Shown piece after piece: positions 778-38,374 of a stretch of 39,758 bases of DNA (the first letter of the stretch is position 1; the number at the start of each line of letters is the position of its first letter). The stretch comes from Tubiluchus corallicola (taxonomy: Eukaryota; Animalia; Priapulida). Made by a program: the position numbers and the translations under genes. The stretch spans positions 1-39,758 of the forward strand of contig JAQGDQ010001465.1 of assembly GCA_030141605.1 (NCBI GenBank). Direction: 5' to 3'. The notes under the pieces were generated by a model that searched no databases, was not told the DNA's origin, and worked only from the letters and a program-made list of their open reading frames with translations.

Positions 778-781
778 GAAG

Positions 782-791
782 CCCTCCCCCT
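782..791 (-). other. Polypurine tract
   Basis: Minus strand AGGGGGAGGG 4 nt before the TG of the 3' LTR. Confidence 0.85.
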
Positions 792-1729
792 AAGAGTGTG
801 GCAACACTCTTAACCAATGGACGTATTAAAAGTATCTGGAGAGCATTTTGGTACAACATACATACATCATGGACACAATGCAAATTTAAAATAAGTGGTT
901 TAGATTTAACAGATCCTAACTACTATGCTGGAACAGGGGTCACAAATCTCTATTACTATTAAAAGTATATACAATAGCACACACACAAAAAAACAAAAAA
1001 AAAATTGCAACTGACAGGTCATTGAACCAATATGAAAAGAATTGGTAATGGTAATGTCAATCATTGCATCACAAAATTACAATATAGCTCAAAAGAACAT
1101 CACCAAAGTTAAGTACTTGCACAAACACAATTCACAAAATTCTCCTGAGAGAAGCCGAAAGAAGATACCCTAAAATGGTTATATGAACCACATTAAAGGT
1201 TAAATGTACATTGTACTAAAAAGACACTGCTAGCAGATTTTAACAGTGTGAGTGCTCAATGACCACACTGGGCTTCAACTCAAACATGGATATGTCCTCA
1301 AATCAGGAAATCCTAGCTACGATTAACAATAACAATGTCGTCTCACAAACAACAAGAATTGTAACCAAACATCGCTCAACGTCCTTCCATATGAATACAA
1401 GAAAGGGTGACTACGATAAGAGCAAATTGTGAAGAGTAATTTGTATTTGGTAACAATAAAGTAAGAGAAAAACTCTCACCTACCTAATGACTACACAGTA
1501 ATACAAATAATTTTCATATTCGTCAGTGCAGCTAGAATTAGCAACAATAAACATCAACAAAAGCATTTATATACACGACTACTACAAGAATTCCATTACA
1601 TCAATATATAAATCGTGAAAGTGTCAAGTGACTCAATGTGAGCCAAAAACCAATGTTTAACGCTAAAAGCAAGACTAACAGATATTATGCGATCTAGGAA
1701 AGGGAAAAAAAACGTTCTCCATTTTCGAA

Positions 1730-4700: not shown

Positions 4701-6619
4701 GCTTTTGCACGTGTAACTGCAAAACTATCAGAGATTTGTGCATCGCTAGACGATTTCAATTGTTCGTTGTCTGAGATTTCTGTATTATTATCAGCTGGGC
4801 CTTCATGAAGGTTTGATTCATCATTAGGTGTAAAAGGCCTCAGTGTTGATAAATAATCATTGCCCAATAAAAGTTCAGCTGGGAGGTCAGACATCACACT
4901 AACTGTAAGCCAACCAGCGAAGTTAGGACCTACAACTTTAATCTCTGCTGTACGACATGGCTCGACATGACCATGCACACATCTAACAGGTTTAGGGTCA
5001 GACTTCAGATACTGATCTTTACCAACAAAACGTGGGTGGATCATAGAAACTGTGGCACCACTGTCTCTTTGCCCCAAAACAGGAATGTCATTCACAAGAG
5101 CCTCAAACATAAACGGTATATTATTAACTGGAATGCCTTGAAGTTTATTAGAACTAGTGTATGTTGATTCGTGATCACAACTACCAAACAAAGTCTTAAC
5201 CGGAGTTTTATTTCTGCTGGTTTTGTTTGCCTTGTTAACAATATTAGTTGCATTTTGCCCATTGTTATTTTGGTGATTGTTCCGCTGTGATGCTTGGCAC
5301 TCTGGTCTTCTGTGACCAGGCTTACCACATTTATAACAAACTATCTTCTGTTTGTCATCAAGTTTATTATCAGAAACGTTTACTAAGGTATTGTTATTGT
5401 AAGGTTGTTTCTGAGAAAATTTTTCTGTTTTCCAAGGAGTAAAAGAGTGATTCCTAGAGTCAGTCTCCTTGGAGCTAATAAATTTGTCAGCCTCCATGGC
5501 CATTTCAAGACCATTCTCAAATTCGTGTCTTTTTAGCCATGTGCGGACATCAGATGTTAAATTATCCATAAACTGTTCCATAGCCATGGCTTCAAAAAGC
5601 TTGGAATAGGAATCAACAGCATTAATTGCTTCACAGAAATCGGTTAATGCACGAACCACTTTTAACCAATACTGATGACATGTTTCGTTGTGACCCTTAG
5701 TAAGAGCCCTAAAGCGTTTCCGGTAAGCATCTGTTGTTAAAATGTAAGCAGCTAAAAGAGACTTCCTTACATAAGAATAATCTTTAATATGCTCCTTAGG
5801 TATTTGCTGATATGCGTCAGCAGCTCGGCCAGATAAAGCAGGACCTAAAAGGGCAGACCAATTTGCCTCGGGAATATCATTAGATGTAGCACACGATTCA
5901 AACCAATTCAAATATCTCTGAATGTCATCAGACGATTCACGAAAACCTCGGACTTTCATTCTACTAGATGGGTTGGCAGGTACAACACAAGTATTTGTCA
6001 AAGCCGCACTTCTGTTTAAAAGTTCTAATTTCCTTAACTCAAATTCCATCTCTTCCTTGCGCATGCGCTCATCACGTTCACCTTGCTCTTTTTCATGCTG
6101 CAAAATGTCACGAACCAAATTGGGATTCATACCTTGAAGATTCTCAAGAGAAAACCCAGAAATACCACACAGTTTATCATTACCCCATCCACTGGAGGTA
6201 GGAATAACATTTTGTGGAGGTTTAAGAGCACCATCTTCAGTACCAACACCTTTTCCTGACTGAGAAATCTCCAGCCAAGTAGTAGAGAAAGGATCTTTTG
6301 GCTTAACACTTTGAAGAGGTGTACTAGCCTGGCTAATTTTGGAAGATTCTATAATTCGTTCAGCAACCGAACCAGGTGACTTAATTGATGTATCATGCAA
6401 TGTGTCAGTTTTATCAGAATTAATAAATGTTTTTCCCTGTAGAGGAACTTGTTGCATTTTAAGAATATGCTGTTGTGCTTTAATTATATGTTCAATTAAT
6501 TCTTGCTTACTGACATGGGTAACATCGACAAGTAAATGAAGTGTGCTTGCTACCCTGGAAAGTTCATCTTTTTTCATTTTATCTAACTGTGTCTTGTTGT
6601 AAATAGTTGCTTCAGCCAT
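1730..6619 (-). CDS. Gag-Pol polyprotein (capsid/SCAN-like, CCHC knuckle, aspartic protease, integrase, RT, RNase H)
   Basis: First ATG 6619 (MAEAT). Knuckle CYKCGKPGHRRPEC; protease RDSGATVS; IN HHCC (AHDNKMAGH..CRSCPSC), DDE (MDIIGP, TDRGTQF, VERYN) and WRGPYP; RT YIDD; RNase H TDAS..ELE..TD..ADALSR. Confidence 0.97.
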   Translation of the reverse strand: MAEATIYNKTQLDKMKKDELSRVASTLHLLVDVTHVSKQELIEHIIKAQQHILKMQQVPLQGKTFINSDKTDTLHDTSIKSPGSVAERIIESSKISQASTPLQSVKPKDPFSTTWLEISQSGKGVGTEDGALKPPQNVIPTSSGWGNDKLCGISGFSLENLQGMNPNLVRDILQHEKEQGERDERMRKEEMEFELRKLELLNRSAALTNTCVVPANPSSRMKVRGFRESSDDIQRYLNWFESCATSNDIPEANWSALLGPALSGRAADAYQQIPKEHIKDYSYVRKSLLAAYILTTDAYRKRFRALTKGHNETCHQYWLKVVRALTDFCEAINAVDSYSKLFEAMAMEQFMDNLTSDVRTWLKRHEFENGLEMAMEADKFISSKETDSRNHSFTPWKTEKFSQKQPYNNNTLVNVSDNKLDDKQKIVCYKCGKPGHRRPECQASQRNNHQNNNGQNATNIVNKANKTSRNKTPVKTLFGSCDHESTYTSSNKLQGIPVNNIPFMFEALVNDIPVLGQRDSGATVSMIHPRFVGKDQYLKSDPKPVRCVHGHVEPCRTAEIKVVGPNFAGWLTVSVMSDLPAELLLGNDYLSTLRPFTPNDESNLHEGPADNNTEISDNEQLKSSSDAQISDSFAVTRAKAAELQAKAVRDQELHKQLEHSTYSTQEHSNLNKFKQEQAQLITVSFEQLKQEQHNDPSLANYIDHATTFEIAEQNGKGYFLKDGMLYYLCKHTKAGKPRELLVLPKSRRRQVLEIAHDNKMAGHLGIRKTADRILMEYIWPKIKHAVRSYCRSCPSCQKNGRLQRGDRLPLRPLPIPKQPFFRIGMDIIGPLSRTPDGNKYALVIVDHATRYPDCYPIPNIETTTILNKLVEFCCRYGIPKEILTDRGTQFTSKLTHQLEEQLGVKGIYTSAYAPSTNGLVERYNSTLKASIRKLIQDHPHLPWDLAIPFVLFAYREVPQESTHYSPNELVFGYALRGPLAMLKERWGCEKLPELEDVDDYVSRIINTLDETLEDAHNSLRRAKLAQKSWFDRVSKQRSFNIGDKVLVQRMKKGSKMATTWRGPYPIVDKLSECTYRVKLGKPGSRRSLSTFHANRLKAYIDREEELVLMALHNEDRDDASVNWQEVEETCNKIGSGKTEACDLPEYAFFPTAVATQSVEDVELPDYLSEEAKEQMRKIFHSYPQMFTDLPGRTKLVQHYINLHDKTPVQQHSYRVPQARLDIIRKEVKDMLNLGVIRRSDSEYSSPMLVVPKPPMDGVSQWRPCVDYRALNKRTIFSPYPTPRPDDMIDDLHGAKWISTLDLSKAYWQIELAPESQPVSAFVTNFGKFEFTVMPFGLMNAAASAQSLIDRILDPVSYCSSGYIDDVIIKSPDWTNHLKHVDYTLYNIRKAGVTVKPKKCHFAQQEVEFLGYVVGKNRLKPQLSKVERIRQFLRPQTKTQVRRFLGTVSFYRRFIPHFSSIAAPLHALTEKYAPVQVEWTEATESSFRQLQDALSSESVLHSPDFTKPFYLTTDASFIGLGAVLSQDKGDGLAEVPVTYISRKLTQPETRYSVVELECLSVVFSVEKLRYYLEGRHFTVRTDQRSLLALDKMKTKNRRLCHWALKLSEYAFDIEHVPGCENRVADALSRL

Positions 6620-7266
6620 TCTGCATGAAAACACACAACTTATAGATCACTTTGATCACACTTGCGTGTATGTACACCAAAATATTATCAAACAGTCATG
6701 CATAATGTCAACCACCGCTTAAAAGGTCGCGCATAATTAATATTCGTACCAAAAGTATATTCTGCCTACTGTCAGTAGCATACGACTCGTATGTGTGCCG
6801 CACTCAAGAGAGCAGAAATACTTCAAGAAAAAGAACAATAGCGGGCGAGCTAAATTATGGGCACTCAACCACAACCTCAAGGAAAACTAAAAATGCTCTA
6901 CAAACAGTCTCAAAATTTTATAAGTATGGAACTACTACAAATTCCCTACACATAATTGCGAGCTGTAGGCTTTGCAATTACAGCAAACTTCTAAGCCAAT
7001 AAATCAAGAACATATTTGGACTGAAAAGATCAACAAAAGTGCCCTGTACAGTTAACGAAAGTAATAAATTTGGCTTCCTGGGTCTGTACGCAAAGCTCTA
7101 GTTTAACGCAACTATATAGCAAAATACTGTATTGTGCTATAAACAGGAAACGACTTCGAAACCTAAACAATTCACGTAAATACATTAAGCACAATTTTAG
7201 GCCACTCAGTCATAAAATCCAGTAACAACCAGTAAACAAACCGTTATCACCAAAAAACTACTGGTA

Positions 7267-7279
7267 ACTTCTGACACCA
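7267..7279 (-). other. Primer-binding site, tRNA-Leu type
   Basis: Minus strand TGGTGTCAGAAGT 2 nt after the 5' LTR; complementary to the tRNA-Leu(CAA) 3' end ACTTCTGACACCA. Confidence 0.85.
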
Positions 7280-7281
7280 AT

Positions 7282-8472
7282 TGTGACGACCACTGGCACC
7301 ATTTTGACTCTCTATGGTGTATTGTATAAAAGAATAAATAGTTTTGTCAGGAATGCAAAATAGGGGTTGTCTTTTACTTTATCCGAGCACGCCAGAGTTC
7401 ATCACATGTGGATAAAAACAATTTTTAATACTAATTTTTAAGGCAAGGGGTTTTTATCCAGACTTTTTTTAACGAGGGTCCTAGTAGTTTGATTAAAACT
7501 GATGCTATTTTAGGCCGTTATAATTTGTACTTAGAAATGACGAGGACGAACAGAAGGACAAACAAACGTTATTGCTTTTCTTATAAAAAAAACGTGCAAA
7601 AATTATTTAATGGTAATTTCAAAAATAATATTTTCTGTAAATTACTTATATACACACATATGATGAAAGAATTCAGTTAACCCCATCCCAGGTATAATAG
7701 GAAGAGAGGAGAGGATAATTACCAAAGAGTTCCATGGTCGCTGCAGCTGTACCAACAGGCTATCATCATGTCGTGATACCGTGGGTCCAGTTATCCAGGA
7801 TCACATCTCAAGAATCAAGAAACAACACCGGAACAGATTGCTGGGGCTCACGCATTGCAGACTCCACCACCAGAGTGTTAGAAACAAGGATCCAGGGTCT
7901 CGAAACGTCTCCGTTTACTCCTATACTGTAGGAGTCAGCAAATGACGGAGAAAAGGAGAAAAGTTCCTCGTTCTCAGTCTTCAGCTAGGCAACCTTCTTA
8001 GGCAGTTCCAAACTCCACCCAACAACCGTCATGATCTACGTGGCCAGATTACGAACACGACGAAGTTTCCTGCATACTAGTAACACTGCCAAGGAACCGT
8101 CTGGTTTCCTCTCAGAGAAATTTGATTACACTGAGAACACCAAAACTAACAAACTCATTATGAGATCTCAAAAGTTACGAGACCTCAAACCTGCTGCAAC
8201 AAAACGTGTAGCTTCAAAACGCAGCTCAAACCCGTAATGGCGGCAATAAGGAAAAATCACGGTTCAAAGCTTTTCCAGGAGCGCGAAAATTATCCATTAA
8301 CCATTCAAGACATGTGACAGGAAGCTCGCCATCAAACAGGGAAAAGGGGAGAGGTATTAAAGGATGGACAGAAAACCAACCCAAACATAAAACAGAAATG
8401 AATATTTTATTTGGAGTACAAAATGAACTTTAGCATAATTTTAATACGGACGAGGACGTCTGTGACGTCACA
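7282..8472 (-). repeat. 5' LTR, 1191 bp
   Basis: TGTGACG...CGTCACA inverted termini, next to PBS. Confidence 0.95.
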
Positions 8473-10111: not shown

Positions 10112-10182
10112 TGCATCGGCCGGGAATCGAACCCGGGCCGCCCGCGTGGCAGGCGAGCATTCTACCACTGAACCACCGATGC
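10112..10182 (-). tRNA. tRNA-Gly(GCC)
   Basis: GCATCGGTGGTTCAGTGGTAGAATGCTCGCCTGCCACGCGGGCGGCCCGGGTTCGATTCCCGGCCGATGCA; complete cloverleaf; T4 Pol III terminator immediately downstream. Confidence 0.97.
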
Positions 10183-11778: not shown

Positions 11779-13054
11779 TCCTACTACCATTATTGTTTTA
11801 TTTTATTATTGTTATTTTCATTACCAATATTATTAGTTTTATTGTTATTGTTGTTATGTACATTTTCGAATTTTTTTGCATAGCATTCGAATTATATTCA
11901 TTTGGTTCAATGAACTGTAAACAATCAACAGTAATTTTTTGGTCTAATAAAACAACTATGACTTATGGTGCATAAAATAAACTTTTGCTAGGCGGTACAA
12001 AAACAACAAGTAGTTTATGCAATGATTTATATTGCAGTATTCTGCAGTATTATTCAATCAGCTGAGATTCTGTTATGTTTTCTATATTCGGCATTAGAGT
12101 GTGCTGCGTTTCTAGTACATTGTCGTGGTTGTTGATAGAAAAAAGCAGTATGACAACACCAACTTTCATAGATTTTAATGGTGCGTCGCGCTTTATGTAA
12201 CTCTATTCTGTGTTTCAAGTTTGCACTTTTTGCTCGACACCACGTGAGTTGTCTTGAATGTCGTACTTTTATCGAGAATGGAGTTGAAATAAAAAAAAGA
12301 TTTTTATAAGTTATTGCTTCATCATTCTCTTGGTTTTGCTTCAACATGTAAGGTATCAATTAGAGAGTTTATGCAGTTATTTTTCTTGCAGCAGTACTTA
12401 TTTGATAGATTCTTGTGATGTAGTACTAGTAGTTATGTTAATTCTGTGAACGTGACCGTTGAACGCCAGTTATTGTTCTTGGCTTTTTGCCAAGTCTGTA
12501 TAAATAGTTTGCAGTGCAGCGTCGACGACGGCGTCAGCTTACCGGACTTAAAATATAATTATAAAAGAAGTTTACATAATATCAGAAAGGTAAATATTTT
12601 GGAGCACTTGCAGTTTAGATGGTTCTCCTCACACACTACTACCTATATCAGTCCCACTGCCGATCCTCTACCTCCTCACTCCCAATACCAACACCACCTA
12701 CGAAATTATAGGATACAGAATAATTTATTTGTCTTAATTACAGTTAACGTAGCTTTAACAAATGTGCCAGCTAAGAGAGACGGTGTGGTGAAAAGACCGA
12801 ACGGTCATCAAGTCTACCACCCTCTTACTAAGTTGATAACAAAACTCTACTCAGGTTAGCACTGTGAGCTATGTAAAATGAATGTTAAAGACTTAAATGT
12901 TATTTTACCTAAAGCATTATTCTTGTATTGCAACAGTTGTTAGTCAGCAGTATGTGAAAATGATTTTAAGTTTCAAATTGAAAATTAATCAACACTTTGT
13001 TATTTAGCATAACTATTAGCTAATACTGACCTCATGCAGTCATAAGCTAGGGAT

Positions 13055-13525
13055 GCACAGCTAGGGCATGCACCACTTACCACAGGTTTGACTATAAGCA
13101 CAGCTAGGACATGCACCACTTGCCACAGGTTTGACTATAAGCACAGCTAGGGCATGCACCACTTACCACTGGTTTGACTATAAGCACAGCTAGGGCATGC
13201 ACCACTTACCACAGGTTTGACTATAAGCACAGCTAGGGCATGCACCACTTACCACAGGTTTGACTATAAGCACAGCTAGGGCATGCACCACTTACCACAG
13301 GTTTGACTATAAGCACAGCTAGGGCATGCACCACTTACCACAGGTTTGACTATAAGCACAGCTAGGGCATGCACCACTTACCACAGGTTTGACTATAAGC
13401 ACGGCTAGGGCATGCACCACGTACCACAGGTTTGACTATAAGCACAGCTAGGACATGCACCACTTACCACAGGTTTGACTATAAGCACAGCTAGGGCATG
13501 CACCACTTACAGCAGGTTTGACTAT
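13055..13525. repeat. 43-bp minisatellite, ~11 copies
   Basis: Unit GCACAGCTAGGGCATGCACCACTTACCACAGGTTTGACTATAA. Confidence 0.97.
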
Positions 13526-13708
13526 TTAGCATTTCACTAAATTCACATCTGCAGACTGGATAATCATCTAAGCATAACGTAATTCCATAAATACATTTTG
13601 AGTATCTCAAATCTTAAACATCTGGAAATATTAACAAACACCATTATCAGAATATGAAATGCTTAAAGAGCGTAGAATTATAAATCAACTTGCGGATTTA
13701 GATGATTA

Positions 13709-18333: not shown

Positions 18334-19241
18334 TCATTTAATCATGATGCCAGTACTCTGACTCGTTGATCTCCTAAGTTGAATCGGCACATCTGGCTTA
18401 GATGGTGTGACTGGTTTCCCGGGTTCATCAAGAGCATTACTCCTAAAAGGTGTAGAACTGCTCTTTGAAGATGAGGGTCCTTCATTGAACATCTCCGTGT
18501 ATGGTCCAGACAAGCGTTTCTCCTCACTAAAAGCAGATGAATCATCACAAAAACTTTTATGTAGATCATCCAAATTAAATACTCGAGTAATCTTGTTATT
18601 GTTATCCTTAATGAGAATCTTCCCATCCAACGTCCATACACCTTTGATTCTATTTTTATCGCGTAAATTTTGGGCTGCCCTCGCAACTTCCATATTAGGT
18701 CTGGTTAGGTCTTCATACACTTTGAGGGGAGGAAGTGGTTTTTTTGCTTTCCTACTTTCTCTCACCAAATTTTTTACTGCTAAGATCACATCTCGTTTGT
18801 AGTCATATCTAATGAATTTACACAAGATTGCTCTGTGTTTGCTTCCACTGCCCTTCCCAGTACGATGGCATCTTTCAATTGCGCTTTTATTAATGTGATC
18901 CAGCTTAAGATCTCCATTGCAGAAGTTCACTACTAAATCATGTACGTTCTTGTCATCATGTTCTGGCACATCGAAGAATCTAACGCTGCATCTCCTACTA
19001 TATTGTTCTAAGTCTTTTGTCGTAGTTGTTTAATTTCTCCACGCATCTCATTGACATCTTCTTTCACTTGCTTGATCGTAACTTTCGGAATTATTGAATT
19101 TATAACTAACGAGAGCGCATGCAGAATTTCTGGAGAGACTGTAGCGTTTCCTTGACTTTTGAGTTCATTTCTAAGTTATTAATTTCATTGACAATTTGCT
19201 CATCATCTATAATAGGCTTGTCTTCTTCAGCAGACGACATC
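18334..19241 (-). pseudogene. Decayed LINE ORF1 (RRM/CTD, Transposase_22-like) of the same element
   Basis: LEQYSRR, IERCHRTGK..RAILCKF, VYEDLT, WTLDGKILIK; 5' part frameshifted. Confidence 0.8.
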
Positions 19242-19963: not shown

Positions 19964-22900
19964 TTATACTAAAGTTTGTAAAAACGAATCACAAACTAAC
20001 TCAGAGAAAGCAACTAGCAGGTTTTTGTCTCGAGAGGTATAAATTTTACTAATGTTTTGAAATTGTAGGCTATTTGTGAGCGCTAATCTTTTATTTTCGT
20101 CGACCAAAGTACAATTAAAAAGCAAATGTTCAACTGTTTGTGCTTCCTCTGAGCATATACAGGCATTTTCGTGTATGTATCCAATTTTAAAAAGAAAATC
20201 TTAAAAGTTACCTTGCCCTAATAAAATACTACAAGATAGTTTTTCTAACCTTCTGCTATTTGTATGAAAAGGAAGGTCTAGTGGAGTTAAAAATACATTT
20301 TCAGGAAGAATAGACAACTCCTGGCATTGGTAGCGAGTACGGCATCTATTTTTCCATAGGTGTGTTATAAAATGCTCAATATCCTGTTTTTTGTACTCAA
20401 GGATATTCAGTGGTATACTACCGTAATCAATAGTACGTGAATTATAATTTTTACATAATTTTAAATATTGACCACTAGAAGCCAGTAATTCTCGAATGAA
20501 ATGTCTATGACCGATTGTGGGATCACGACTAATCTCTATTATATGACTTTTGACTAAATCTGAATCCGACATTGCTAGAGATTTTAGCATAAATTTTACT
20601 GTGATTCCCTTAAATATAATATCAAGTGGGGGTAGCCCACAAATTAACTCTAGTTTGTCTTTTGAGGGGTGAAAGTGACAACCAGTAGCAGTTTTCATAA
20701 CGTCATACAACAGATCGTCAAACAATGAGTGCTTTCTTACCATCCAGGCTGGAGCAGCATACATTATAATTGGTAAAACTAAAGTCTTAAATAGAGCAAT
20801 GATAACATTGAGACTGAAACCTTTATACAGCATGCTCTTACGCTTAATTGACATCCACCTATTCCAAGCTTGTCTTCTAACCTTACTTACGTGATTTTCA
20901 AATGACAAATTACTGTCGATTGTAACTCCTAAAACTTTACTACTTTGCACGTAACTAACATCATTGGTTCCAAATTTTAAGCAGTCGTTTAAATCATGAA
21001 GGCCAAATGGAATTACTTCAGTTTTTCCTTGCGAGCAATTTATTATCTGCCGCCATTTAAAACACCAATTATAGAGTTTATCACAACACAGCTGACTAGT
21101 TCTAAGCGTTTCATTTTCGGAAGAACAAGCTACAAGTATTGTTCCGTCATCTGCATATTTAAAATTATCAGTATTTGATATTGCTAAGATTTCGTCAAAC
21201 ATGTCGGACACATAAAAATTAAATAGCACCGGGGAGATGACTGACCCCTGTGGCAGACCTATCTTACAACAGTATTCCTGAGAAGTATAGTTATTGACCT
21301 TGATGCGCACATTCCTTTCATATAGAAAAGTCTTAATAAGACCCAGAATTCTACCTTTAAAGCCGGCCTCATATAGCTTAAACAGTAGACCATCCAACCA
21401 GACGCTGTCAAAAGCGCGCTGGAAATCACAGCAGATAGACAGACAGACATCATTTTGTAGTAAATGCTGTTGAATATTTGATATTAAGCGAATCAAATAG
21501 CGACCGGTATTGCGACCTGCCATGAAACCTTCCTGCACTTCGTCTATCAGATCATTTTCAAACATGTAAGTTCTCAATCGATTTGACAGTAAACGTTCAG
21601 CAAATTTGCCAAAATAGGATGAGAGCGTCAGGGGTCGAAAGCTACCAGGATCCGTATAATTTGTTTTGCCTTCCTTTTTAATGAATATTACATTGGATTC
21701 ACGCCAAACCCACTCGCTTTTACTTAAACAAAGATTACACAAGTATAGAAAAACGGCCTTGGCCCAGAAGCCAAGGTGTTTAACCATCAGTGGATGAAAG
21801 CCATCGTAGTCGGTGCTTTTGCCCTGCGTGACTGTTTCTTTTATTGCAATGTTTAGTTCATCCATTGTAAAGTTACCGTTTATAGCAAGGGGCACCATGC
21901 CTCTATAATCATAGCGAGAAACTTCCCCCTCTACTTGCTGCTGCCAAAAATAATCGAAATTTGCACCGTTTACGTGATCTCCACTTAAAAAATTTTTGTA
22001 TAGTACCTCACAAATATCTTGATTTTCGCTATATATGTTTCCTTCATATTTTAGCATGCCGATATCTGAATTTGCTCTACCAGTAAATATTTTCTTATAT
22101 TCTCTCCAGAATGCATTACTTTTACGAACATTTAAGTTGACACACTTTTTACAAAGCCAGTTATCAGCAGCTGTGCGAAGTTCTTCATCAAACTTAGTCT
22201 CTTCTTCAAGATACCGGTTCCTATTGTGAATATTAGAATGCTTTAGATAGATTTTTCTCAACCTTCGTACATTGTTTGACAAAAGAACTTAAGTTTTGAG
22301 TCCAAAACGGTTTTGAGTGATTACATATAACTTTCTTTGGTAGTACAGCTTCATTGCTGTTTTTTATTAATTTCTGAAACAACTGCCACAGCTCAATAGG
22401 GTCCTCTCGCATTATAGCATCGTTAAGGAGCGCAAAATTAGAGCGCAAACTATTTTCTAAATAACCTGACCAGCTATGCCAGTTACTGCTTTTGAAATCG
22501 AAGACAGTACGCTTTGCTGTTGTGCTACAGTTATGGAAAGATGCACCTAACTTAGTAATGACTGGAAAGTGGCCCATTAACGGAGCTCCACTAAACAATT
22601 CAACCTCGTCGTCAACGCTTTGTGTCACCGGTAATGACGCAAGATTGTTTGTTAGCAATACAATATCAATGATGCTTTTGCCGTGGGCTGATTTAAATGT
22701 TTCAACCAACGGTGCAACAGGCAGTACTGGATATGTGCTAGACCAAACAAAGTCATTTAAAAGTTGCCCATGTGAGTTAGTTTTTACATCCCACATAAAA
22801 CTTCTACTATTCAGATCTCCAGTTAACATAACACCGTCTAGGCTTTGTTGATCAGAAAATAGGCAGGCCTTTTTGAAAGAAGCTAGCATTGATTGCATGT

Positions 22901-23255
22901 GCTCGACTTTGTTTGGCAGAACATATACAGAAGCTACAATCATTTTCAAACCTTTGCCTTTAACTAAAACCCAAATTGTATCTGTGTTGTTATCTTCTAA
23001 TTCGTGTAGTCTGCAACTAATCAATCCATTTTTTACGAATACTGCACATCCACTTGTATTTGGGTCCTTATTTTTGACATAACTTTGATAATTAGTTAGA
23101 GTCACATCATCGTATTGTTTAGCTTTCACTTCCTGTACTGTAACAATATCAAAGTAGTAGGAGTTTACATATTTGTCTAACGCATATTGTGAACGAACAG
23201 AAAAAGTATTGATATTAATTTGGCATACACTGAGACACCTAGAAGATGCAGCCAT
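19964..23255 (-). pseudogene. LINE ORF2 (APE-RT-CCHC) with one frameshift (~22283) and one in-frame stop (20201-20203)
   Basis: CQININT, VTVQEV, GDLNS, SIIDI; FRPLTL, DFQRAFDSV, GLPQGSVISP, YADD; CICSEEAQTVEHLLFNC in frame after the TAA. Confidence 0.92.
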
Positions 23256-27057: not shown

Positions 27058-27501
27058 TGTTTGGGCTTTCAAAACCAAATTTTAAGCTAGATTACATTTT
27101 GCTCTTTCTTCCTTCTTTATTTACCAAAACGTATCATTCCATCTAAACAAAACCGTAAACAAATGACAAAAAATAAATAACACTAGCCAAAAGTCAATTT
27201 TACATAATTCAGAGTTTCACACTGCACCGTCGCATTAATCAATAAATAGCTGTTATCAAATAGTAAATTTAAATTTTATAAAGTAATTTGAGTATATACG
27301 TACGTTATTAGCCCCAAATCATAAGCAATTGCAACAGATAACGACAACATTTAATCAACCCACCATGACACGTCCTCACTTCACACGCCTCTGACACCGA
27401 TCAAACTGATCACGTGTCCAGGCCAAAAAATCACCACAAGGTGGCCAAAGCCAACAGCAAGTGGAGGCCGCAAAGCACGCCAATGCCAGATTTCCAGTAC
27501 A
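27058..27501. repeat. ~444-bp interspersed repeat, copy 1
   Basis: Close direct match to 35238-35680. Confidence 0.93.
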
Positions 27502-27628: not shown

Positions 27629-27756
27629 CAGGGTCGGCCTTAGGTAATTGAAGGCCCTAGGCGAAGTGAATTTGGTGGCCCCAAATGAAATAGAAAAATA
27701 AAAAATAAGTTATTAGTTGTTACCTGCAGTCGTAAGAAAATAAGATAAGATGATCC
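27629..27756. mobile_element. hAT-like MITE terminus abutting the viral insert
   Basis: CAGGGTCGGCCTTAGG..GGCCCTAGGC start typical of GC-rich hAT MITEs; partner end not found. Confidence 0.4.
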
Positions 27757-28137
27757 GTTTATCTCCGCTCGGTTAGAGGCACCGAGAGCTAGAGCTGCAG
27801 TTGCTTCGGCAATGGCTGCTGTAGACATGATTAATCCTAAAAACCTTTTCTTTCTGGGAGTGTAATTGGACGAGTTCTGGTTGCCCTTGTCCTCGAACAA
27901 ATTGTAACGCACATTCCAGGCTTTCGTCATTTCTATCCTGACTACTTTAAATGATTGAGCGACTTGATAACCCAGAGGTTTGGGATCTGTAATGATGATC
28001 CCATAAGTTGCTAACACATCCTGGTGTTTATATATAATGTCCTGCGACACCTGTGGTATTATGCTCTTAACACTGATGATAGTTTCTTGGCTTGAAGAAA
28101 GCAAACTCAAAAAGAGAAGAACCTTATAATACTCCAT
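27757..28137 (-). pseudogene. F-like copy 5, 3'-truncated after ..SNRAEIN and reading into flank (stop at 27640)
   Basis: Identity to the other copies ends at 27757. Confidence 0.9.
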
Positions 28138-28170
28138 TTTGACTTCATTTTTTTTTTTTTTTTTTTTTTT

Positions 28171-28872
28171 TTAAAAATTTTTTTTAAAATAAGGACTATG
28201 GCGAGTGCTGTCTGCTGTTGTATTCGACTTTCTGACATGCGTTATCGGCTCAACAAATCTCCGTGCTGAGAATACCTTATACCTTATAGAATTAAGATAG
28301 TCGTGCAACCTGAGCATATCAGTAGCATGTGCTACCATTAAGCTATGTACTTCATCATTTATACCTCCAACTATCCTTTCTAGCTTCTCTAGATCGTGTC
28401 CCAATATTCCGATCTCCTTATTCACGATCTGCACTTCATGTTCGATGATCCCTTGGTTTTGTCGTAGTTCGCTCATTTTAGAGTTCAGTGAGTTTATCTC
28501 CGCTCGGTTAGAGGCACCGAGAGCTAGAGCTGCAGTTGCTTCGGCAATGGCTGCTGTAGACATGATTAATCCTAAAAACCTTTTCTTTCTGGGAGTGTAA
28601 TTGGACGAGTTCTGGTTGCCCTTGTCCTCGAACAAATTGTAACGCACATTCCAGGCTTTCGTCATTTCTATCCTGACTACTTTAAATGATTGAGCGACTT
28701 GATAACCCAGAGGTTTGGGATCTGTAATGATGATCCCATAAGTTGCTAACACATCCTGGTGTTTATATATAATGTCCTGCGACACCTGTGGTATTATGCT
28801 CTTAACACTGATGATAGTTTCTTGGCTTGAAGAAAGCAAACTCAAAAAGAGAAGAACCTTATAATACTCCAT
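28171..28872 (-). CDS. F-like fusion glycoprotein copy 4, 233 aa, no TM
   Basis: Signal peptide, RKKR/FLGLIMSTAAIAEATAALALG, heptad repeat, sequons NSS/NYT/NTT; ends KKNF-TAA. Confidence 0.8.
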   Translation of the reverse strand: MEYYKVLLFLSLLSSSQETIISVKSIIPQVSQDIIYKHQDVLATYGIIITDPKPLGYQVAQSFKVVRIEMTKAWNVRYNLFEDKGNQNSSNYTPRKKRFLGLIMSTAAIAEATAALALGASNRAEINSLNSKMSELRQNQGIIEHEVQIVNKEIGILGHDLEKLERIVGGINDEVHSLMVAHATDMLRLHDYLNSIRYKVFSARRFVEPITHVRKSNTTADSTRHSPYFKKNF

Positions 28873-28879
28873 TTTGACT

Positions 28880-28880
28880 T

Positions 28881-28928
<48 letters not shown>

Positions 28929-29617
28929 TTAAAATAAGGACTATGGCGAGTGCTGTCTGCTGTTGTATTCGACTTTCTGACATGCGTTATCGGCTCAACA
29001 AATCTCCGTGCTGAGAATACCTTATACCTTATAGAATTAAGATAGTCGTGCAACCTGAGCATATCAGTAGCATGTGCTACCATTAAGCTATGTACTTCAT
29101 CATTTATACCTCCAACTATCCTTTCTAGCTTCTCTAGATCGTGTCCCAATATTCCGATCTCCTTATTCACGATCTGCACTTCATGTTCGATGATCCCTTG
29201 GTTTTGTCGTAGTTCGCTCATTTTAGAGTTCAGTGAGTTTATCTCCGCTCGGTTAGAGGCACCGAGAGCTAGAGCTGCAGTTGCTTCGGCAATGGCTGCT
29301 GTAGACATGATTAATCCTAAAAACCTTTTCTTTCTGGGAGTGTAATTGGACGAGTTCTGGTTGCCCTTGTCCTCGAACAAATTGTAACGCACATTCCAGG
29401 CTTTCGTCATTTCTATCCTGACTACTTTAAATGATTGAGCGACTTGATAACCCAGAGGTTTGGGATCTGTAATGATGATCCCATAAGTTGCTAACACATC
29501 CTGGTGTTTATATATAATGTCCTGCGACACCTGTGGTATTATGCTCTTAACACTGATGATAGTTTCTTGGCTTGAAGAAAGCAAACTCAAAAAGAGAAGA
29601 ACCTTATAATACTCCAT
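28880..29617 (-). CDS. F-like copy 3, 245 aa with poly-Lys tail
   Basis: Same sequence; reads through poly(A) to the junction TGA. Confidence 0.75.
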
Positions 29618-29624
29618 TTTGACT

Positions 29625-30344
29625 TCATTTTTTTTTTTTTTTTTTTAAATTTTTTTTAAAATAAGGACTATGGCGAGTGCTGTCTGCTGTTGTATTCGAC
29701 TTTCTGACATGCGTTATCGGCTCAACAAATCTCCGTGCTGAGAATACCTTATACCTTATAGAATTAAGATAGTCGTGCAACCTGAGCATATCAGTAGCAT
29801 GTGCTACCATTAAGCTATGTACTTCATCATTTATACCTCCAACTATCCTTTCTAGCTTCTCTAGATCGTGTCCCAATATTCCGATCTCCTTATTCACGAT
29901 CTGCACTTCATGTTCGATGATCCCTTGGTTTTGTCGTAGTTCGCTCATTTTAGAGTTCAGTGAGTTTATCTCCGCTCGGTTAGAGGCACCGAGAGCTAGA
30001 GCTGCAGTTGCTTCGGCAATGGCTGCTGTAGACATGATTAATCCTAAAAACCTTTTCTTTCTGGGAGTGTAATTGGACGAGTTCTGGTTGCCCTTGTCCT
30101 CGAACAAATTGTAACGCACATTCCAGGCTTTCGTCATTTCTATCCTGACTACTTTAAATGATTGAGCGACTTGATAACCCAGAGGTTTGGGATCTGTAAT
30201 GATGATCCCATAAGTTGCTAACACATCCTGGTGTTTATATATAATGTCCTGCGACACCTGTGGTATTATGCTCTTAACACTGATGATAGTTTCTTGGCTT
30301 GAAGAAAGCAAACTCAAAAAGAGAAGAACCTTATAATACTCCAT
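29625..30344 (-). CDS. F-like copy 2
   Basis: Same sequence; ATG at 30344. Confidence 0.75.
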   Translation of the reverse strand: MEYYKVLLFLSLLSSSQETIISVKSIIPQVSQDIIYKHQDVLATYGIIITDPKPLGYQVAQSFKVVRIEMTKAWNVRYNLFEDKGNQNSSNYTPRKKRFLGLIMSTAAIAEATAALALGASNRAEINSLNSKMSELRQNQGIIEHEVQIVNKEIGILGHDLEKLERIVGGINDEVHSLMVAHATDMLRLHDYLNSIRYKVFSARRFVEPITHVRKSNTTADSTRHSPYFKKNLKKKKKK

Positions 30345-30354
30345 TTTGACTTCA

Positions 30355-30385
<31 letters not shown>

Positions 30386-31067
30386 AAGGACTATGGCGAG
30401 TGCTGTCTGCTGTTGTATTCGACTTTCTGACATGCGTTATCGGCTCAACAAATCTCCGTGCTGAGAATACCTTATACCTTATAGAATTAAGATAGTCGTG
30501 CAACCTGAGCATATCAGTAGCATGTGCTACCATTAAGCTATGTACTTCATCATTTATACCTCCAACTATCCTTTCTAGCTTCTCTAGATCGTGTCCCAAT
30601 ATTCCGATCTCCTTATTCACGATCTGCACTTCATGTTCGATGATCCCTTGGTTTTGTCGTAGTTCGCTCATTTTAGAGTTCAGTGAGTTTATCTCCGCTC
30701 GGTTAGAGGCACCGAGAGCTAGAGCTGCAGTTGCTTCGGCAATGGCTGCTGTAGACATGATTAATCCTAAAAACCTTTTCTTTCTGGGAGTGTAATTGGA
30801 CGAGTTCTGGTTGCCCTTGTCCTCGAACAAATTGTAACGCACATTCCAGGCTTTCGTCATTTCTATCCTGACTACTTTAAATGATTGAGCGACTTGATAA
30901 CCCAGAGGTTTGGGATCTGTAATGATGATCCCATAAGTTGCTAACACATCCTGGTGTTTATATATAATGTCCTGCGACACCTGTGGTATTATGCTCTTAA
31001 CACTGATGATAGTTTCTTGGCTTGAAGAAAGCAAACTCAAAAAGAGAAGAACCTTATAATACTCCAT
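30355..31067 (-). CDS. F-like copy 1, no stop, in frame with copy 2 (480-aa fused ORF)
   Basis: ATG spacing 723 nt = 241 codons. Confidence 0.72.
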
Positions 31068-31075
31068 TTTGACTT

Positions 31076-31114
<39 letters not shown>

Positions 31115-31151
31115 TAGTATTATTAGTGTTAGTGTAAGATAGTTATACTGC

Positions 31152-32045
31152 TTACGGAATTCCAAGTGAAGCACCACTTACTACTTGTGAGTCAGGTGGT
31201 AGTCCGGATCGGATGGAACTTTTGTGAGATGGCAGAGAAATTAAGCGTTGAGACGGGTTGCCAGAGAAATGAGACAACTGACTACCTAGCTCTTCCATAG
31301 TAGAAGATAATTGTTTCATGTGTAAGCATATGTCGTTGATATCTTCTTCAATTTTTATTATTCTCTTTCCAAAATCTTGCTGCATCTGATTGATGTTATT
31401 ATTAGCTTGATTAATTTTCTCAATCATTTCATCTTTACAATTACCAATTAGTTTTGTCATACTCTTCATGATTATTTCTAATTTTTCAGAGCTATCAGGA
31501 AAAGTGGGGGATAGTTCTCTGGGGTTAAGCACAGGAATTTCTTTATCAAGAGTTGAGAGGTCTGCTCGGTGTTCTCTAGCCTTTGGGATAGGGTAAGCTT
31601 TTGGTACTGCTCCTGTCTCTAAAGTCTGTGTTGGTTGATCAGGTTTATCTGAAATGATAGTTACAACTTTATTGTGTGTTTGAGGCGTTATAGGTCTTAA
31701 ACTGCTCTTAGGAAGATCTCCACAAATTGGAAGACTTTGTTCCTCTTTATAATGCAGTTTCGGTAAATCTGGTATATCTATCCAGTTTGGATTTCTTGCC
31801 TTTTCTCTTTTTTGAGTCTCATAGCTAATAAAGCTCAGGAGCCTGGTGGAAAATGGACCACTTCTAGGGTCTACTTGGCTCAACTGTTTTTCAAGAGATT
31901 CTATCTTCATGAGTCTGACAAGACCTGCTTCTTCTAAAAGATGGGTGATTGTTTTTTTGATACCATCTCGATTGAGAGTCTTCTTCATTACATCAATATT
32001 TCTTAGGCCCTTGAGAATCTTTGTAGCACATTCAAGCTGGTCCAT
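31152..32045 (-). CDS. Putative viral phosphoprotein (P-like), 297 aa
   Basis: N-terminal amphipathic helix MDQLE..KGLRNIDVMK, Pro/Ser/Thr-rich middle, C-proximal coiled coil; own gene-start, 3' UTR and A33. Confidence 0.6.
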   Translation of the reverse strand: MDQLECATKILKGLRNIDVMKKTLNRDGIKKTITHLLEEAGLVRLMKIESLEKQLSQVDPRSGPFSTRLLSFISYETQKREKARNPNWIDIPDLPKLHYKEEQSLPICGDLPKSSLRPITPQTHNKVVTIISDKPDQPTQTLETGAVPKAYPIPKAREHRADLSTLDKEIPVLNPRELSPTFPDSSEKLEIIMKSMTKLIGNCKDEMIEKINQANNNINQMQQDFGKRIIKIEEDINDICLHMKQLSSTMEELGSQLSHFSGNPSQRLISLPSHKSSIRSGLPPDSQVVSGASLGIP

Positions 32046-32068
32046 GTTGACTTCGATTTTTTTAGATA
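32042..32068 (-). promoter_or_regulatory. Viral gene-end / intergenic / gene-start junction
   Basis: TATCT AAAAAAA TC GAAGTCAAC ATGG; the start motif recurs before every F copy. Confidence 0.75.
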
Positions 32069-32076
32069 AAACTATC

Positions 32077-32544
32077 TCAACTCAATATTAGGTTATTGAT
32101 GCTCTTTAGAAGAGTGGTTCCGTTTTGAATCTGAACCAAAAATTGAGGCCAGACTAGATTGTTTTCCTTTCTTCGATTCACATTTCCGCAATAAGGTGTC
32201 TGTTCACTAGTGCTTTTTGTTGGCAAGGTTTCTCCTTGAAGTTTAGAAAACGCCAGTTGTAACTTTTCCAAACACTCTCGCAAAATTTTGAGCTCAAACA
32301 TTATATCATTATTTGTGGTTTGTGTTTCCCTTTCATTTGTTTTTTCTTGCAGTTGGGGGTAAATAGATGAAGAAGTAGCTCTGTAAAGTGGAGCTGATGG
32401 TATTATATAATTTCTAATACATATTTCTGGATTTCTCCAATGATAAATAATATTTTTCTCGCCTTCTTTAAATAGTGAAAAATTAAGTCCACAGGGACAA
32501 GGAGCATGGTTGATGACAGGGCCACTCGGGCAGTCTGTTGTCAT
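32077..32544 (-). CDS. Unknown viral ORF X (155 aa from ATG; may be 5'-truncated) with late-domain motifs
   Basis: PSAP and YPQL motifs, short coiled coil; followed by TATCT-A7 gene end. Confidence 0.55.
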   Translation of the reverse strand: MTTDCPSGPVINHAPCPCGLNFSLFKEGEKNIIYHWRNPEICIRNYIIPSAPLYRATSSSIYPQLQEKTNERETQTTNNDIMFELKILRECLEKLQLAFSKLQGETLPTKSTSEQTPYCGNVNRRKENNLVWPQFLVQIQNGTTLLKSINNLILS

Positions 32545-32568
32545 ATGGATTTTGAAATATTCCAAATA

Positions 32569-32691
32569 GCTTACCGAACAGAATAGAATAGAGCAAAGCC
32601 TGAAGTGTGAACAGAGCTGCAATGAAAGACACGACCACTGACAAGGGTCTACAGCAGACCTTCCCTTTTTATAAGCTCAGGTGTGCACGTG
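32569..32691 (-). promoter_or_regulatory. Putative Pol II core promoter plus 5' exon and splice donor
   Basis: CACGTG (32686-91), CACCTG, TATAAAAA (32673-66), TCAGT initiator (32641-37), G/GTAAGC at 32574. Confidence 0.45.
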
Positions 32692-33419
32692 ACTAGTGGC
32701 TCCCACTAACACAAGGTCAGAATAAGAGTCTATGTGGTAGATAAAGCCACGTTCACACGCACACCTGAGCAGTCTGCTGTATTCCCCTGCCAGTATTACA
32801 CTATCTCATCACAGCCCTGCAGTACAATATTATTACTTTTACACATCATTCTTACAACATTCATACTGCTTGTCCCCAGGCCTACACATAAATTTGAGTA
32901 CATTTTTGTAAAGGACGAGCAGCAAGACGCTTACTTCATTCAGCGAGGCGAACACAACTTTATTGATTATTTATTTTATTGATTATTTACTAGTTGCAAC
33001 AGCAATACTTGAAAAAATCTTTCCAAAAACAACGTCAGAATGGGAAATAATGTTGGTGGAAATGACACCCGCAGTGCGATAGAGAGCTTATGTAATACGA
33101 GATAGTGATGCTATTGAACAATCTTTGGACTTAAACTTAATAAACATGAAATAACAAACTTAAACTTTTCTCTGCCTCGAGGAACTGAAAAAAACGAACG
33201 ATGAATTTTTTGTTACCGCTTCGCCTCCGCTTTAGTTTCTGAGATTTACGGGAACAATTTTTTAATTGTCTGTATATAAAAAAGACAATAGATAGGTATA
33301 AAAACAATAAAAAGTTCAGTTAGGAGCCGTTAGAACATTTTTGCCATACTGCAACGGAGCCGTTAGAACGTTTTTGCCATACTTCAACTTTCTGACTGGT
33401 ACAATAGCAGTTATTATTA

Positions 33420-34507: not shown

Positions 34508-35060
34508 CAGTGGTTCCCAACCTTTTCCTTGCCAAGTACCCCTTCTAAATTAATATTATCGACATTTTTTTATTTTAACTTTTCTTGAAAACATGAATTT
34601 TATCACTGATTATTAAGAAATACGTAATTTGAACAACTTTCTCGAATATGAAAACATCAATACAAGGAAACGTGATCTCCACAGCAGTCATAATTAATGC
34701 ACACGCTGTTCTTGATGATTGTCAACAAGTTTTTTGATATCAGGTTTAATTGTTGATATTGCGACTCGCATGTCGCTCCTCAAATCCAAACGATTTCTTG
34801 CCTTCGTCTTCAAATGTAGCATTGCACTGAAGCCTAGCTCACATTTGTATGTTGTCACAAATGGAACCAACACCTCGAAAGCCGCAATTTTCAGTCCATT
34901 GAAGTCTGCACCTAGCTGTGCCCAGAACTTCTCTAGTGACGTGGTCTTGAACTTCATCTTCTCAACTTCACATGCTTGCAATTCAATCAGAAGTTCTTTG
35001 CTCGCATCGTCATCTGGCGGTTCATCAATGTCAAAAGCAAAAGGATGACGAATCCACTTT
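34508..35060 (-). mobile_element. hAT Buster/Charlie 3' fragment with transposase dimerisation domain
   Basis: WIRHPF..FW..PFVTTYKCELGFS..KTKARNRL..DMRVAIS; TIR CAGTGGTTCCCAACC preceded by TTCTAGAG (NTCTAGAN target). Confidence 0.9.
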
Positions 35061-35237
35061 AGAATCCAATTAGTATAAAACCAACTTCTGGGTCAAGTTA
35101 TCGTAGACATATGTGGGCACCAACGATTAAAAGAGGCTTTCCACCTTTGCACTATATTGTAGTGCTATAGTGCCCTATGCTATATTATTATTTATGCTTG
35201 GTTTTTCGAGTCTTGTGAACATTTTTATAATAGCATA

Positions 35238-35680
35238 TGTTTGGGCTTTCAAAACCAAATTTGAAGCTAGGGTAATTCTGCTCTTTCTTCTTTCTTTATT
35301 TACCAAAACATATCATTCCATCTAAACAAAACCATAAACAAATGACAAAAAATAAATAACACTAGCCAAAAGTCAATTTTACATAATTCAGAGTTTCACA
35401 CTGCACCGTCGCATTAATCAATAAATAGCTGTTATCAAATAGTAAATTTAAATTTTATAAAGTAATTTGAGTATATTCGTACGTTTTTAGCCCTAAATCA
35501 TAAGCAATTGCAACAGATAACGACAACATTTAATCAACCCACCATTAAACGTCCTCATTTCACACGCCTCTGACACCGATCAAACTGATCACGTGTCCAG
35601 GCCAAAAAATCACCACAAGGTGGCCAAAGCCAACAACAAGTGGAGGCCGCAAAGCACGCCAATGCCTGGTTTCCAGTACA
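35238..35680. repeat. ~443-bp interspersed repeat, copy 2
   Basis: Close direct match to 27058-27501. Confidence 0.93.
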
Positions 35681-36221: not shown

Positions 36222-36679
36222 GGCACCAGCTACCTTTACTGGAAGAGATCTTAGCAGCCTGCACTATTGATACCATTATTATGTCATGGGGCAGGCCAGC
36301 TTTCTGACTCATTTTACTGATCTGTGGCCCATTGAACCCGCACGTGAGCTGTGGCCCATTGAACCCATACAGTAATTATATTCTACAAATAAGAAATGAG
36401 TTTTTTTTTCATTTCCTCCTTATTTTTTCCATCTAAAATACATACGAGTATAAATAAATTACATTTGACTCAACTTTTTGTTAAACAGTATGTTTACCAT
36501 TGAGAACTACCCATTGAGACAACAGATGAAAATTAGTGTTGCAGTGTAAAATCCTAGAGAATTTTCGTATAGCTTTGCTATTTCTGTCGCTGTTCTGTTT
36601 ATCATTATTGTGGCTACGTCTGTGCATTAAAATGTGCACATTCCCATTACGTATATCCGTTTTGATACTCTCTCTCTAA

Positions 36680-37107
36680 GTGTGTCTCGGCGTGCCCTCG
36701 CGGCGGGTGTGTCTCGGCTTACCCTCGCAGCGGGTGTGTCTCGGCTTGCCCTCGCAGCGGGTGTGTCTCGGCTTGCCCTCGCAGCGGGTGTGTCTCGGCT
36801 TGCCCTCACAGCGGGTGTGTCTCGGCTTGCCCTCACAGCGGGTGTGTCTCGGCTTGCCCTCACAGCGGGTGTGTCTCGGTTTACCCTCACAGCGGGTGTG
36901 TCTCGGCTTGCCCTCACAGCGGGTGTGTCTCGGCTTGCCCTCGCACCTGTTGTGTCTCGGCTTTCCCTCACAGCGGGTGTGTCTCGGCTTACCCTCACAG
37001 CGGGTGTGTCTCGGCTTGCCCTTGCGGCGGGTGTGTCTCGGCTTGCCCTCGCGGCGGGTGTGTCTCGGCTTGCCCTCGCAGCGGGTGTGTCTCGGCTTGC
37101 CCTCACA
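36680..37107. repeat. 27-bp GC-rich minisatellite, ~16 copies
   Basis: GGGTGTGTCTCGGCTTGCCCTCGCAGC. Confidence 0.96.
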
Positions 37108-37281
37108 CCGGGCTGTGGTTCATCAACTATCAGTCCGATCCCAGCAGGGTGGACAGCGGGGTCCCTCTCTGCTTCTGGATCGTTTGCATCTGAGCAGTCA
37201 GAGACTGTCCCTCTCAACTTCTGCTGCCATTTTAGCGGCGGTGTAGTGGGCGGATTTCCAAATTTTACATGTACCTCATAT

Positions 37282-37540
37282 TTATATCAACCAAGCAATG
37301 GGGAGGCTCTGATGGAGGAATTTGGTGAGCCCCATTGTGTTGGGTTGGAATTCGAGTTCCTGCTCGGCCATGAGCCTTAATTCATAACCTGTCAATGGTG
37401 TACCGGCGCCATCGGCCCTCCTCCCCCTGGGTCCAGGGAGACTTGTTATATTCGACAGGATGAGCCCACCTTCTGTGCTGTTGGCATCTCGCATGCGTGT
37501 TAAAGATACGGAAGCATTCAGGACAGCGGTGAGCACCATC
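37282..37540 (-). pseudogene. R2-like (RLE) non-LTR N-terminal fragment: C2H2 finger and Myb-like segment
   Basis: HRCPECFRIFNTHARCQQHRRWAHPVEYN; ELRLMAEQE..KFLHQSLP in a shifted frame. Confidence 0.65.
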
Positions 37541-37594
37541 CTGTGACGACTCTCTACCACCGCTCGCTTGATCTGTTTCTTCAGCTACTCTGTT

Positions 37595-38000
37595 GGAACA
37601 ATGCCTGTAATGGTAGTAGGTGCTCTGGTGGAACAATGCCTGTAATGGTAGCAGGTGCTCTGGTGGAACAATGCCTGTAATGGCAGCAGGTGCTCTGGTA
37701 GAACAATGCCTGTAATGGTAGCAGGTACTCTGGTGGAACAATGCCTGTAATGGTAGCAGGTACTCTGGTGGAACAATGCCTGTAATGGCAGCAGGTGCTC
37801 TGGTAGAACAATGCCTGTAATGGTAGTAGGTGCTCTGGTGGAACAATGCCTGTAATGGTAGCAGGTGCTCTGGTGGAACAATGCCTGTAATGGCAGCAGG
37901 TGCTCTGGTAGAACAATGCCTGTAATGGTAGCAGGTACTCTGGTGGAACAATGCCTGTAATGGTAGCAGGTACTCTGGTGGAACAATGCCTGTAGTGGTG
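37595..38000. repeat. 35-bp minisatellite, ~11.5 copies
   Basis: GGAACAATGCCTGTAATGGTAGCAGGTGCTCTGGT. Confidence 0.97.
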
Positions 38001-38374
38001 CAATGGCCACAGGTTTTCACACTTCACTCATCAGAATTCAAGCCTATGGACGCCAATCCATGGCTTACTTTCACATGAGATTTCGCCAACTTCCAGTTGG
38101 GAATTGCTTTGGCATAAACAGGATAACGGTCACTGTCCTGCACAGGATAATTTAGTGTTATCATTGTTCTAGTCTCTTTGCCCGTAAACAGACCGAAAGT
38201 CGACGCCTAGGCATCTCGCGCTGCCTGGTCATTTCCATGTACCCTACCGGCATTTTCTTTATCATTTTTGCCAACTAATAACTGGTTCTGCCACTAAAGG
38301 TAGTCAGCCTAAAGTGGGGGGTTTCTTCCCACAGACGCCATGCGACGAGACAGTGGCAGAGCTGCAACGTCTCT

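Follow-up and report, generated by a model that had tools for sequence, protein, structure and literature searches.

The antigenomes of mononegaviruses carry successive open reading frames (ORFs) with stop-start signals between them, from which polyadenylated mRNAs are produced (PMC10101049). In the bat element EBLL-1, capture of the long interspersed nuclear element (LINE) type took up a mononegavirus mRNA with its termination signal and poly(A) (PMC4865735), and the paramyxovirus-derived endogenous viral elements (EVEs) of teleost fish comprise RNA-dependent RNA polymerase and nucleoprotein pieces (PMC11521997). The subject of this report is a cassette of ~4.8 kb on the minus strand (32544-27757) of contig JAQGDQ010001465.1 (assembly GCA_030141605.1), the whole analyzed stretch of 39.8 kb (39,758 nucleotides) being called the window. 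The cassette holds three intronless ORF types, namely ORF A, ORF B and an F-like ORF, at the places where a preliminary description of this DNA had put them. We read it, at a probability of about 0.7, as a recent endogenous DNA copy of transcripts from an undescribed, divergent non-segmented negative-strand RNA virus with an F-type glycoprotein. Its architecture is that of a mononegavirus EVE, and it is not to be filed under the paramyxoviruses or pneumoviruses; of the endogenous paramyxo/pneumo-like virus first proposed, a recently endogenized virus of negative-strand type with an F-like gene is retained, and the family placement is dropped.

The fish and reptile Bornaviridae (carbo- and culterviruses) resemble the cassette in that their GA[A/C] starts lie alongside A-tract stops and their phosphoprotein (P) gene is followed directly by the glycoprotein gene (bioRxiv 2023.08.23.554433, PMC13293379, PMC5834213). 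Bornaviruses are described as reading through termination signals (PMC5834213), little skate bornavirus is reported to have truncated glycoprotein duplicates that lack the transmembrane (TM) segment, and mRNA-derived endogenous bornavirus-like elements retain a termination signal and poly(A) much as the cassette does (PMC4865735), although at the cassette, unlike at those elements, no target-site duplication was found. The bornavirid glycoprotein is described as class III (PMC13293379), whereas the F of the insert is class I-like. In culterviruses X/P and G are described as co-transcribed, whereas B and F are here separated by a stop-start signal. A weak further likeness to the family is the nearest Pfam-bearing ESM Atlas cluster of ORF B, BDV_P24 (bornavirus P24; score 0.79), which is a lead only and of a kind that often arises by chance.

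The Aliusviridae are viruses of insects. Viro3D reports class I proteins for this family, where they are long, and for a clade of Mononegavirales (PMC12583693). Paramyxo-like F in host DNA is described from many invertebrate phyla, as the F-type env with furin site and fusion peptide that is widespread in invertebrate Ty3/gypsy elements such as errantiviruses (PMC13524379) and as the lokiretrovirus Env, which matches PF00523 (PMC7947760). Given these env genes, finding an F-like gene in the DNA of an invertebrate is nothing new as such, and with the class I proteins of the Aliusviridae also in view, the premise of the preliminary description that F-like genes are unexpected in invertebrate DNA was too strong. 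Distinctive here is the stop-start architecture: unlike errantiviruses and lokiretroviruses, the cassette has neither gag-pol nor a pair of long terminal repeats (LTRs), and its genes are set apart by A tracts that a common start motif follows. Styela rustica patchyvirus 1, a mononega-like tunicate virus compared here by description only, is likewise invertebrate-associated and has unassignable ORFs upstream of its glycoprotein, but this glycoprotein is class II (alphavirus E1-like) and the virus is an exogenous full genome; the same report places a tunicate virus with a class II glycoprotein basal to the paramyxo- and pneumoviruses (bioRxiv 2024.12.15.628590). The literature covered gave no account of the present virus, nor of any mononegavirus of invertebrates that has a paramyxo-type F; the genus labels in Fig. 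3C of Viro3D could hold one.

Junction signals and gene content

A motif consisting of at least seven A residues, T(C), GAAGTCAA, any nucleotide and ATG occurs six times, all of them in the cassette; the rest of the window has no such motif on either strand. The repeated start/stop signals noticed earlier are thereby borne out, the six motifs representing two independent junction types only (A/B and B/F). ORF B and each F copy open with GAAGTCAA-N-ATG 1-2 nt past an A tract. The A/B junction (32046..32070, minus strand) consists of a T-rich run, an unexpanded A7, the spacer TC, GAAGTCAAC and ATG; the B/F junction (31068..31116, minus strand) consists of a T-run, an internal A33, the spacer T, GAAGTCAAA and ATG, and each F-F joint carries the same T-GAAGTCAAA. 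Recurrence of the 8-mer by chance at a second independent junction has a probability of ~6e-5. Neither AATAAA nor ATTAAA occurs within 40 nt upstream of any of the 10 A tracts listed. Tandem genes with conserved stop and start signals, the mark of a Mononegavirales EVE, are thus seen at two junction types, and the pairing of A tract and start motif fits mononegavirus stop-start transcription. In Paramyxoviridae the intergenic spacer is conserved at three bases, a length that neither TC nor T has.

ORF A (32077..32544, minus strand, 155 aa) and an intact ORF B (31152..32045, minus strand, 297 aa) are followed on the same strand by four F-like copies with no mismatch across 684 nt and a unit spacing of 723-745 nt. 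The first (30355..31067) is truncated and reads into A27, and the others end in A8-T3-A19 (29628..30344), A8-T3-A37 (28883..29617) and A8-T5-A25 (28148..28872, with a 233-aa ORF whose stop lies at 28171). A partial fifth copy (27757..28137) comprises the first 381 nt and is cut abruptly without poly(A). The single F gene of the preliminary description has therefore to be amended: the F-like ORF is there, as four identical copies and a 381-nt partial one, each truncated. None of 500 shuffles of A+B reached an ORF of at least 155 aa, and none of 500 shuffles of F one of at least 228 aa. The sense strand of A+B is A-rich, and the observed/expected (o/e) CpG ratio is 0.38 in A+B, 0.75 in F and 0.70-0.86 in the flanks, the difference between F and A+B having p=0.03. 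An apparent joint from 28491 to 27757 was discarded as an artefact of a query stretch that begins and ends inside the repeat unit.

The class I signature pointed out earlier, with LATYGII, RKKR/FLGLIMSTAAIAEATAA and a heptad region, is present in full on the minus strand. The F-like protein has a signal-peptide-like start, RKKR at residues 95-98, a hydrophobic, fusion-peptide-like segment from residue 99 and then a heptad helix, so that a polybasic site, an N-terminal fusion peptide and a heptad repeat, as expected of class I, are found together; the F of Paramyxoviridae and Pneumoviridae (PF00523) has the same succession. Hydropathy above 1.5 (19-residue windows) is reached in F only at the fusion peptide, and there are three N-glycosylation sequons and no Cys in 228 aa. 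Unlike the F of those families, the F of the insert is 228-233 aa long and has no disulfide-forming Cys, second heptad region or TM anchor, which, in truncated copies, speaks to the insert and not to the source virus. Such a truncated F would not serve as an anchored fusogen.

The top Pfam family for F is Fusion_gly (PF00523), at E=0.0021 and 16.9 bits against a cut-off of 29.8. Of the eight PDB matches at E<=10, six are to F0 chains of the fusion glycoprotein, with the alignment falling on the cleavage site and fusion peptide. In the ESM Atlas, rank 1 is a Fusion_gly cluster (0.95, 207/256 features, 92% viruses, commonest Negarnaviricota), and 7 of the 10 best family-bearing matches belong to the rank-1 family or its clan. 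The search of BFVD gave a morbillivirus F at rank 3 (E=1.7). The single-sequence model of F is one long helix with a predicted local confidence (pLDDT) >90 and a predicted global score (pTM) of 0.32, for which VIA-align found generic coiled coils only (best Z 7.5). Foldseek, the check suggested in the preliminary description, was run with the single-sequence models of F and of ORF B and gave no significant match for either. Searches of viral contigs with the F pattern gave two matches, neither of them confirmed, and a metagenome contig (1 of 50 passing tblastn for F) was rejected as GC-rich and bacterial-looking. Judging from the convergence of these weak-to-moderate matches, the F-like gene is likely of class I F ancestry.

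ORF A has a Cys/His-rich N-terminal part, a short coiled coil and the motifs PSAP and YPQL, which we take to resemble budding late domains. As no start motif lies ahead of it and its frame stays open in the upstream direction, it has probably lost its 5' end and would be the 3' part of a longer gene. Mononegavirus phosphoproteins are built from a helical N-terminal part, a disordered middle and a coiled coil. ORF B is predicted to have a helical N-terminal part, a disordered middle, a confident coiled coil at 185-261 and a disordered tail, and is phosphoprotein-like by this predicted architecture only. Its best ESM Atlas match scores 0.86. No gag or pol domain was found in A or B with Pfam, and no matrix or attachment-protein gene was found in the cassette.

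Sequencing runs, flanks and neighboring elements

Four of the six listed runs contain the stretch: three share a sample and a study, and the fourth (X2) belongs to another study. None of the runs listed as containing it is an RNA run, which says nothing about expression. In X1, positions 31141-32584 are spanned without differences by one contig of 1,500 nt at a depth of 266, with haplotype-specific flank contigs at 154-260 and F contigs near 6,300, contig depth being a rough guide only to copy number. ORF B has a depth of 11.4 in X3, where haplotype-specific flank contigs have 9-19. The F:B depth ratios of 24 (X1) and 8 (X3) exceed the 4.5 of the assembly, so the F array may be collapsed in the assembly, or extra copies may lie elsewhere. 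In X2, F and B are present and differ by a single listed substitution; the run has another joint, from 32153 to 30452, its contigs break at 30749 and at 31308, and its depth relative to its own flank is ~5x for B and ~45x for the 5' part of F. It is a DNA-like run in which near-identical sequence stands in a different and more amplified arrangement. X5, a run that has the same species label, covers 2 of 30 bins, neither of them in the viral part or the single-copy flank.

Both flanks are very high-copy repeats, at ~600-1,100x ORF B by depth ratio. The upstream repeat (32555..32830, minus strand; depth ~250,000 against 266 for ORF B in X1, a ratio of ~940) has a TATA-like box at ~32673-32667, an initiator-like TCAGT at ~32641 and a 5' splice-site-like GGTAAG at ~32575, with no ATG between the TATA-like box and the ATG of ORF A; its boundary with the viral part is placed no finer than about 32554-32600. 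On the left, the end of another repeat (27629..27756, plus strand; X1 depth up to 294,000) begins with CAGGG at 27629, which is presumably a hAT-like terminus. Contigs of X1, X2 and X3 that diverge from the window behind 27628 represent another haplotype without this repeat. Beyond the final, partial copy of F lies a splice-acceptor-like pyrimidine tract (27700-27757, minus strand) that ends in CTGCAG; given this tract and the donor-like motif at ~32575, the cassette could be intronic in a transcript driven by the repeat. A direct duplication of 444 bp (96%; 27058-27501 and 35238-35680) brackets the cassette region and may be a trace of transposon-driven rearrangement. Both of its copies begin with TGTTTGGG, which also directly precedes the repeat end at 27629.

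The CpG o/e of the flanks is above typical vertebrate values, and the host is likely an invertebrate by this measure, in agreement with the apparently invertebrate genome of the preliminary description, a status taken from flank CpG only. The window is AT-rich and contains an intact Gypsy element, a LINE, a hAT remnant and satellites. The Gypsy element (1-8472, minus strand) has one 1,629-aa ORF (1730-6619) with a SCAN-like domain (E=6e-7) and the integrase before the reverse transcriptase (RT), which we take to be the Gmr1-like order; the 100% identity of its LTR copies (1-777 and 7696-8472) marks a very recent insertion. The LINE (20201-23255, minus strand) has endonuclease and RT in two adjacent frames, and its best relatives are 34-39% identical. 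Baculo_FP_2nd is matched weakly by a short ORF (18334-18693), and the C-terminal remnant of a hAT transposase (Dimer_Tnp_hAT, E=0.0004) lies at 34697-35092 on the minus strand. The remaining features are a tRNA-Gly(GCC) gene (10112-10182, minus strand) and minisatellites at 12969-13613 (43-nt unit), 36572-37219 (27-nt) and 37512-38103 (35-nt).

Alternative explanations

Several results weigh against the proposed viral origin or against an inherited insert. No single match of F is decisive: the Pfam match lies below its cut-off, and the best PDB match has E=0.24 (parainfluenza F at E of at least 0.24). The ESM Atlas recognition value of F (1657, below the 2300 mark) weakens the score of 0.95, and a Baculo_F-type cluster, mostly eukaryotic, follows at rank 2 with 0.93. 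No candidate among 3,845 longer proteins matched F at E<=0.1, and HMMER found no true relative among 1.84 billion representatives, its sole match, a Bodo saltans virus protein (2,716 aa), having been rejected as coiled-coil similarity. Beyond coiled-coil noise, ORF A has no homologue in Pfam, NCBIfam or PDB, and ORF B none in these or in a large protein search (0/1,337). N and L genes are absent from the window, and the CpG o/e of F is host-like, unlike that of A+B. X1, X3 and X4 may themselves stem from the source sample. Neither host junction is bridged by a listed contig with at least 31 letters on both sides, so that integration at the exact site rests on the assembly. A target-site duplication is not seen either, TGTTTGGG standing before 27629 but not after the right-hand repeat.

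One alternative is that F is the env of an errantivirus- or lokiretrovirus-like retroelement of the host, A and B being accessory ORFs and the cassette a rearranged retro-copy with the TATA-bearing repeat as LTR. The wide occurrence of F-type env in invertebrates, the PF00523 match of lokiretrovirus Env, the eukaryotic cluster at rank 2, the host-like CpG of F and the TATA and splice donor of the repeat upstream would all suit such an element. Yet A and B lack gag and pol domains, the two flanks match neither one another nor the Gypsy LTR of the window, and ORF B stands near single-haplotype depth in X1, unlike a multicopy family. We also know of no retroelement RNAs with an A tract and a shared start motif between genes, and we regard this explanation as unlikely. 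It is also improbable that the virus is right but the DNA is not inherited, being somatic or extrachromosomal cDNA (concatemers or circles from an ongoing infection) or the product of an assembler mis-join to the flanks. Flanks present in ~600-1,100 copies are easily mis-joined, and the lack of bridging contigs, the other joints of X2 and an F:B depth ratio that differs between runs of one sample and from the assembly can all be explained in this way. On the other side, the depth of ORF B (266 in X1, 11.4 in X3) is about that of the haplotype-specific flanks, as for one copy per cell, and near-identity across two studies two years apart would be more in keeping with inheritance of an allele than with the free evolution of an RNA virus.

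That the source virus was a true, divergent member of the Paramyxoviridae or Pneumoviridae, possibly with a vertebrate host, we consider very improbable. The F0 chains among the best PDB matches and the morbillivirus F at rank 3 in BFVD point in that direction, and paramyxovirus EVEs are known from teleost fish (PMC11521997). The preliminary description had likened the virus to these families, and a placement with them is not shown: no N, M, attachment-protein or L gene is seen, the spacers between A tract and start motif measure 1-2 nt, A and B are without homologues and the fold comparisons are non-significant. In both families a matrix gene, coding for a beta-rich protein, lies between P and F, whereas an ORF predicted to be helical and coiled-coil, and no recognizable matrix gene, directly precedes F in the cassette. 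The first 228 aa of F without Cys, the lack of an HMMER relative and a flank CpG o/e of 0.70-0.86 also speak against it.

Proposed origin and significance

The locus is most likely the fossil of a recent infection, and the fresh negative-strand record claimed at the outset is upheld by the stop-start junctions, the absence of host poly(A) signals, the Fusion_gly cluster at Atlas rank 1, the identical copies and the runs of two studies. For the endogenous mononegavirus copy preferred here, the A tracts would have arisen by stuttering of the viral polymerase on U tracts, since none of them has AATAAA or ATTAAA within 40 nt. Read-through RNA may have supplied A-B-F, because A/B keeps a genome-like A7-TC while B/F has an expanded A33. 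The RT of a host LINE or Gypsy element would then likely have copied the viral RNA, much as has been inferred for EBLL-1 (PMC4865735), with insertion between the high-copy repeats; both kinds of element are present in the window, and neither is tied to the insert by a target-site duplication. The truncated F unit, flanked by poly(A), would have been amplified in tandem as DNA, in which A tracts could slip or exchange unequally with one another. We favor this over the joining of separate mRNAs because the F-F joints repeat the T-GAAGTCAAA of B/F and the copies are identical, an argument that fails if the mRNA itself starts at the T before GAAGTCAAA. The upstream TATA-bearing repeat, if it fires, would yield sense RNA and might be a small-RNA source.

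The insert is unusually fresh, with transcription signals and internal poly(A) kept and an arrangement that differs between the two studies, and for this reason it is a tractable case for the capture and amplification of non-retroviral RNA. It also bears on whether F has moved between gypsy env and the mononegaviruses. Petrone et al. suggested that a switch to class I at the root of Paramyxoviridae and Pneumoviridae accompanied a move to vertebrates (bioRxiv 10.1101/2024.12.15.628590), and an invertebrate stop-start virus that has an F-type gene, if true, would directly test this proposal. More tentatively, and at somewhat less than even odds, the locus may record an ongoing or very recent infection of an invertebrate by an undescribed mononegavirus lineage, with a paramyxovirus-type class I F directly after a P-like gene, whose transcripts have entered the germline and whose F arrays are expanding differently between individuals behind a host promoter. 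If so, it would contradict the proposed arrival of class I fusion in this part of the order with vertebrate hosts and would show an antiviral-type EVE amplification in progress.

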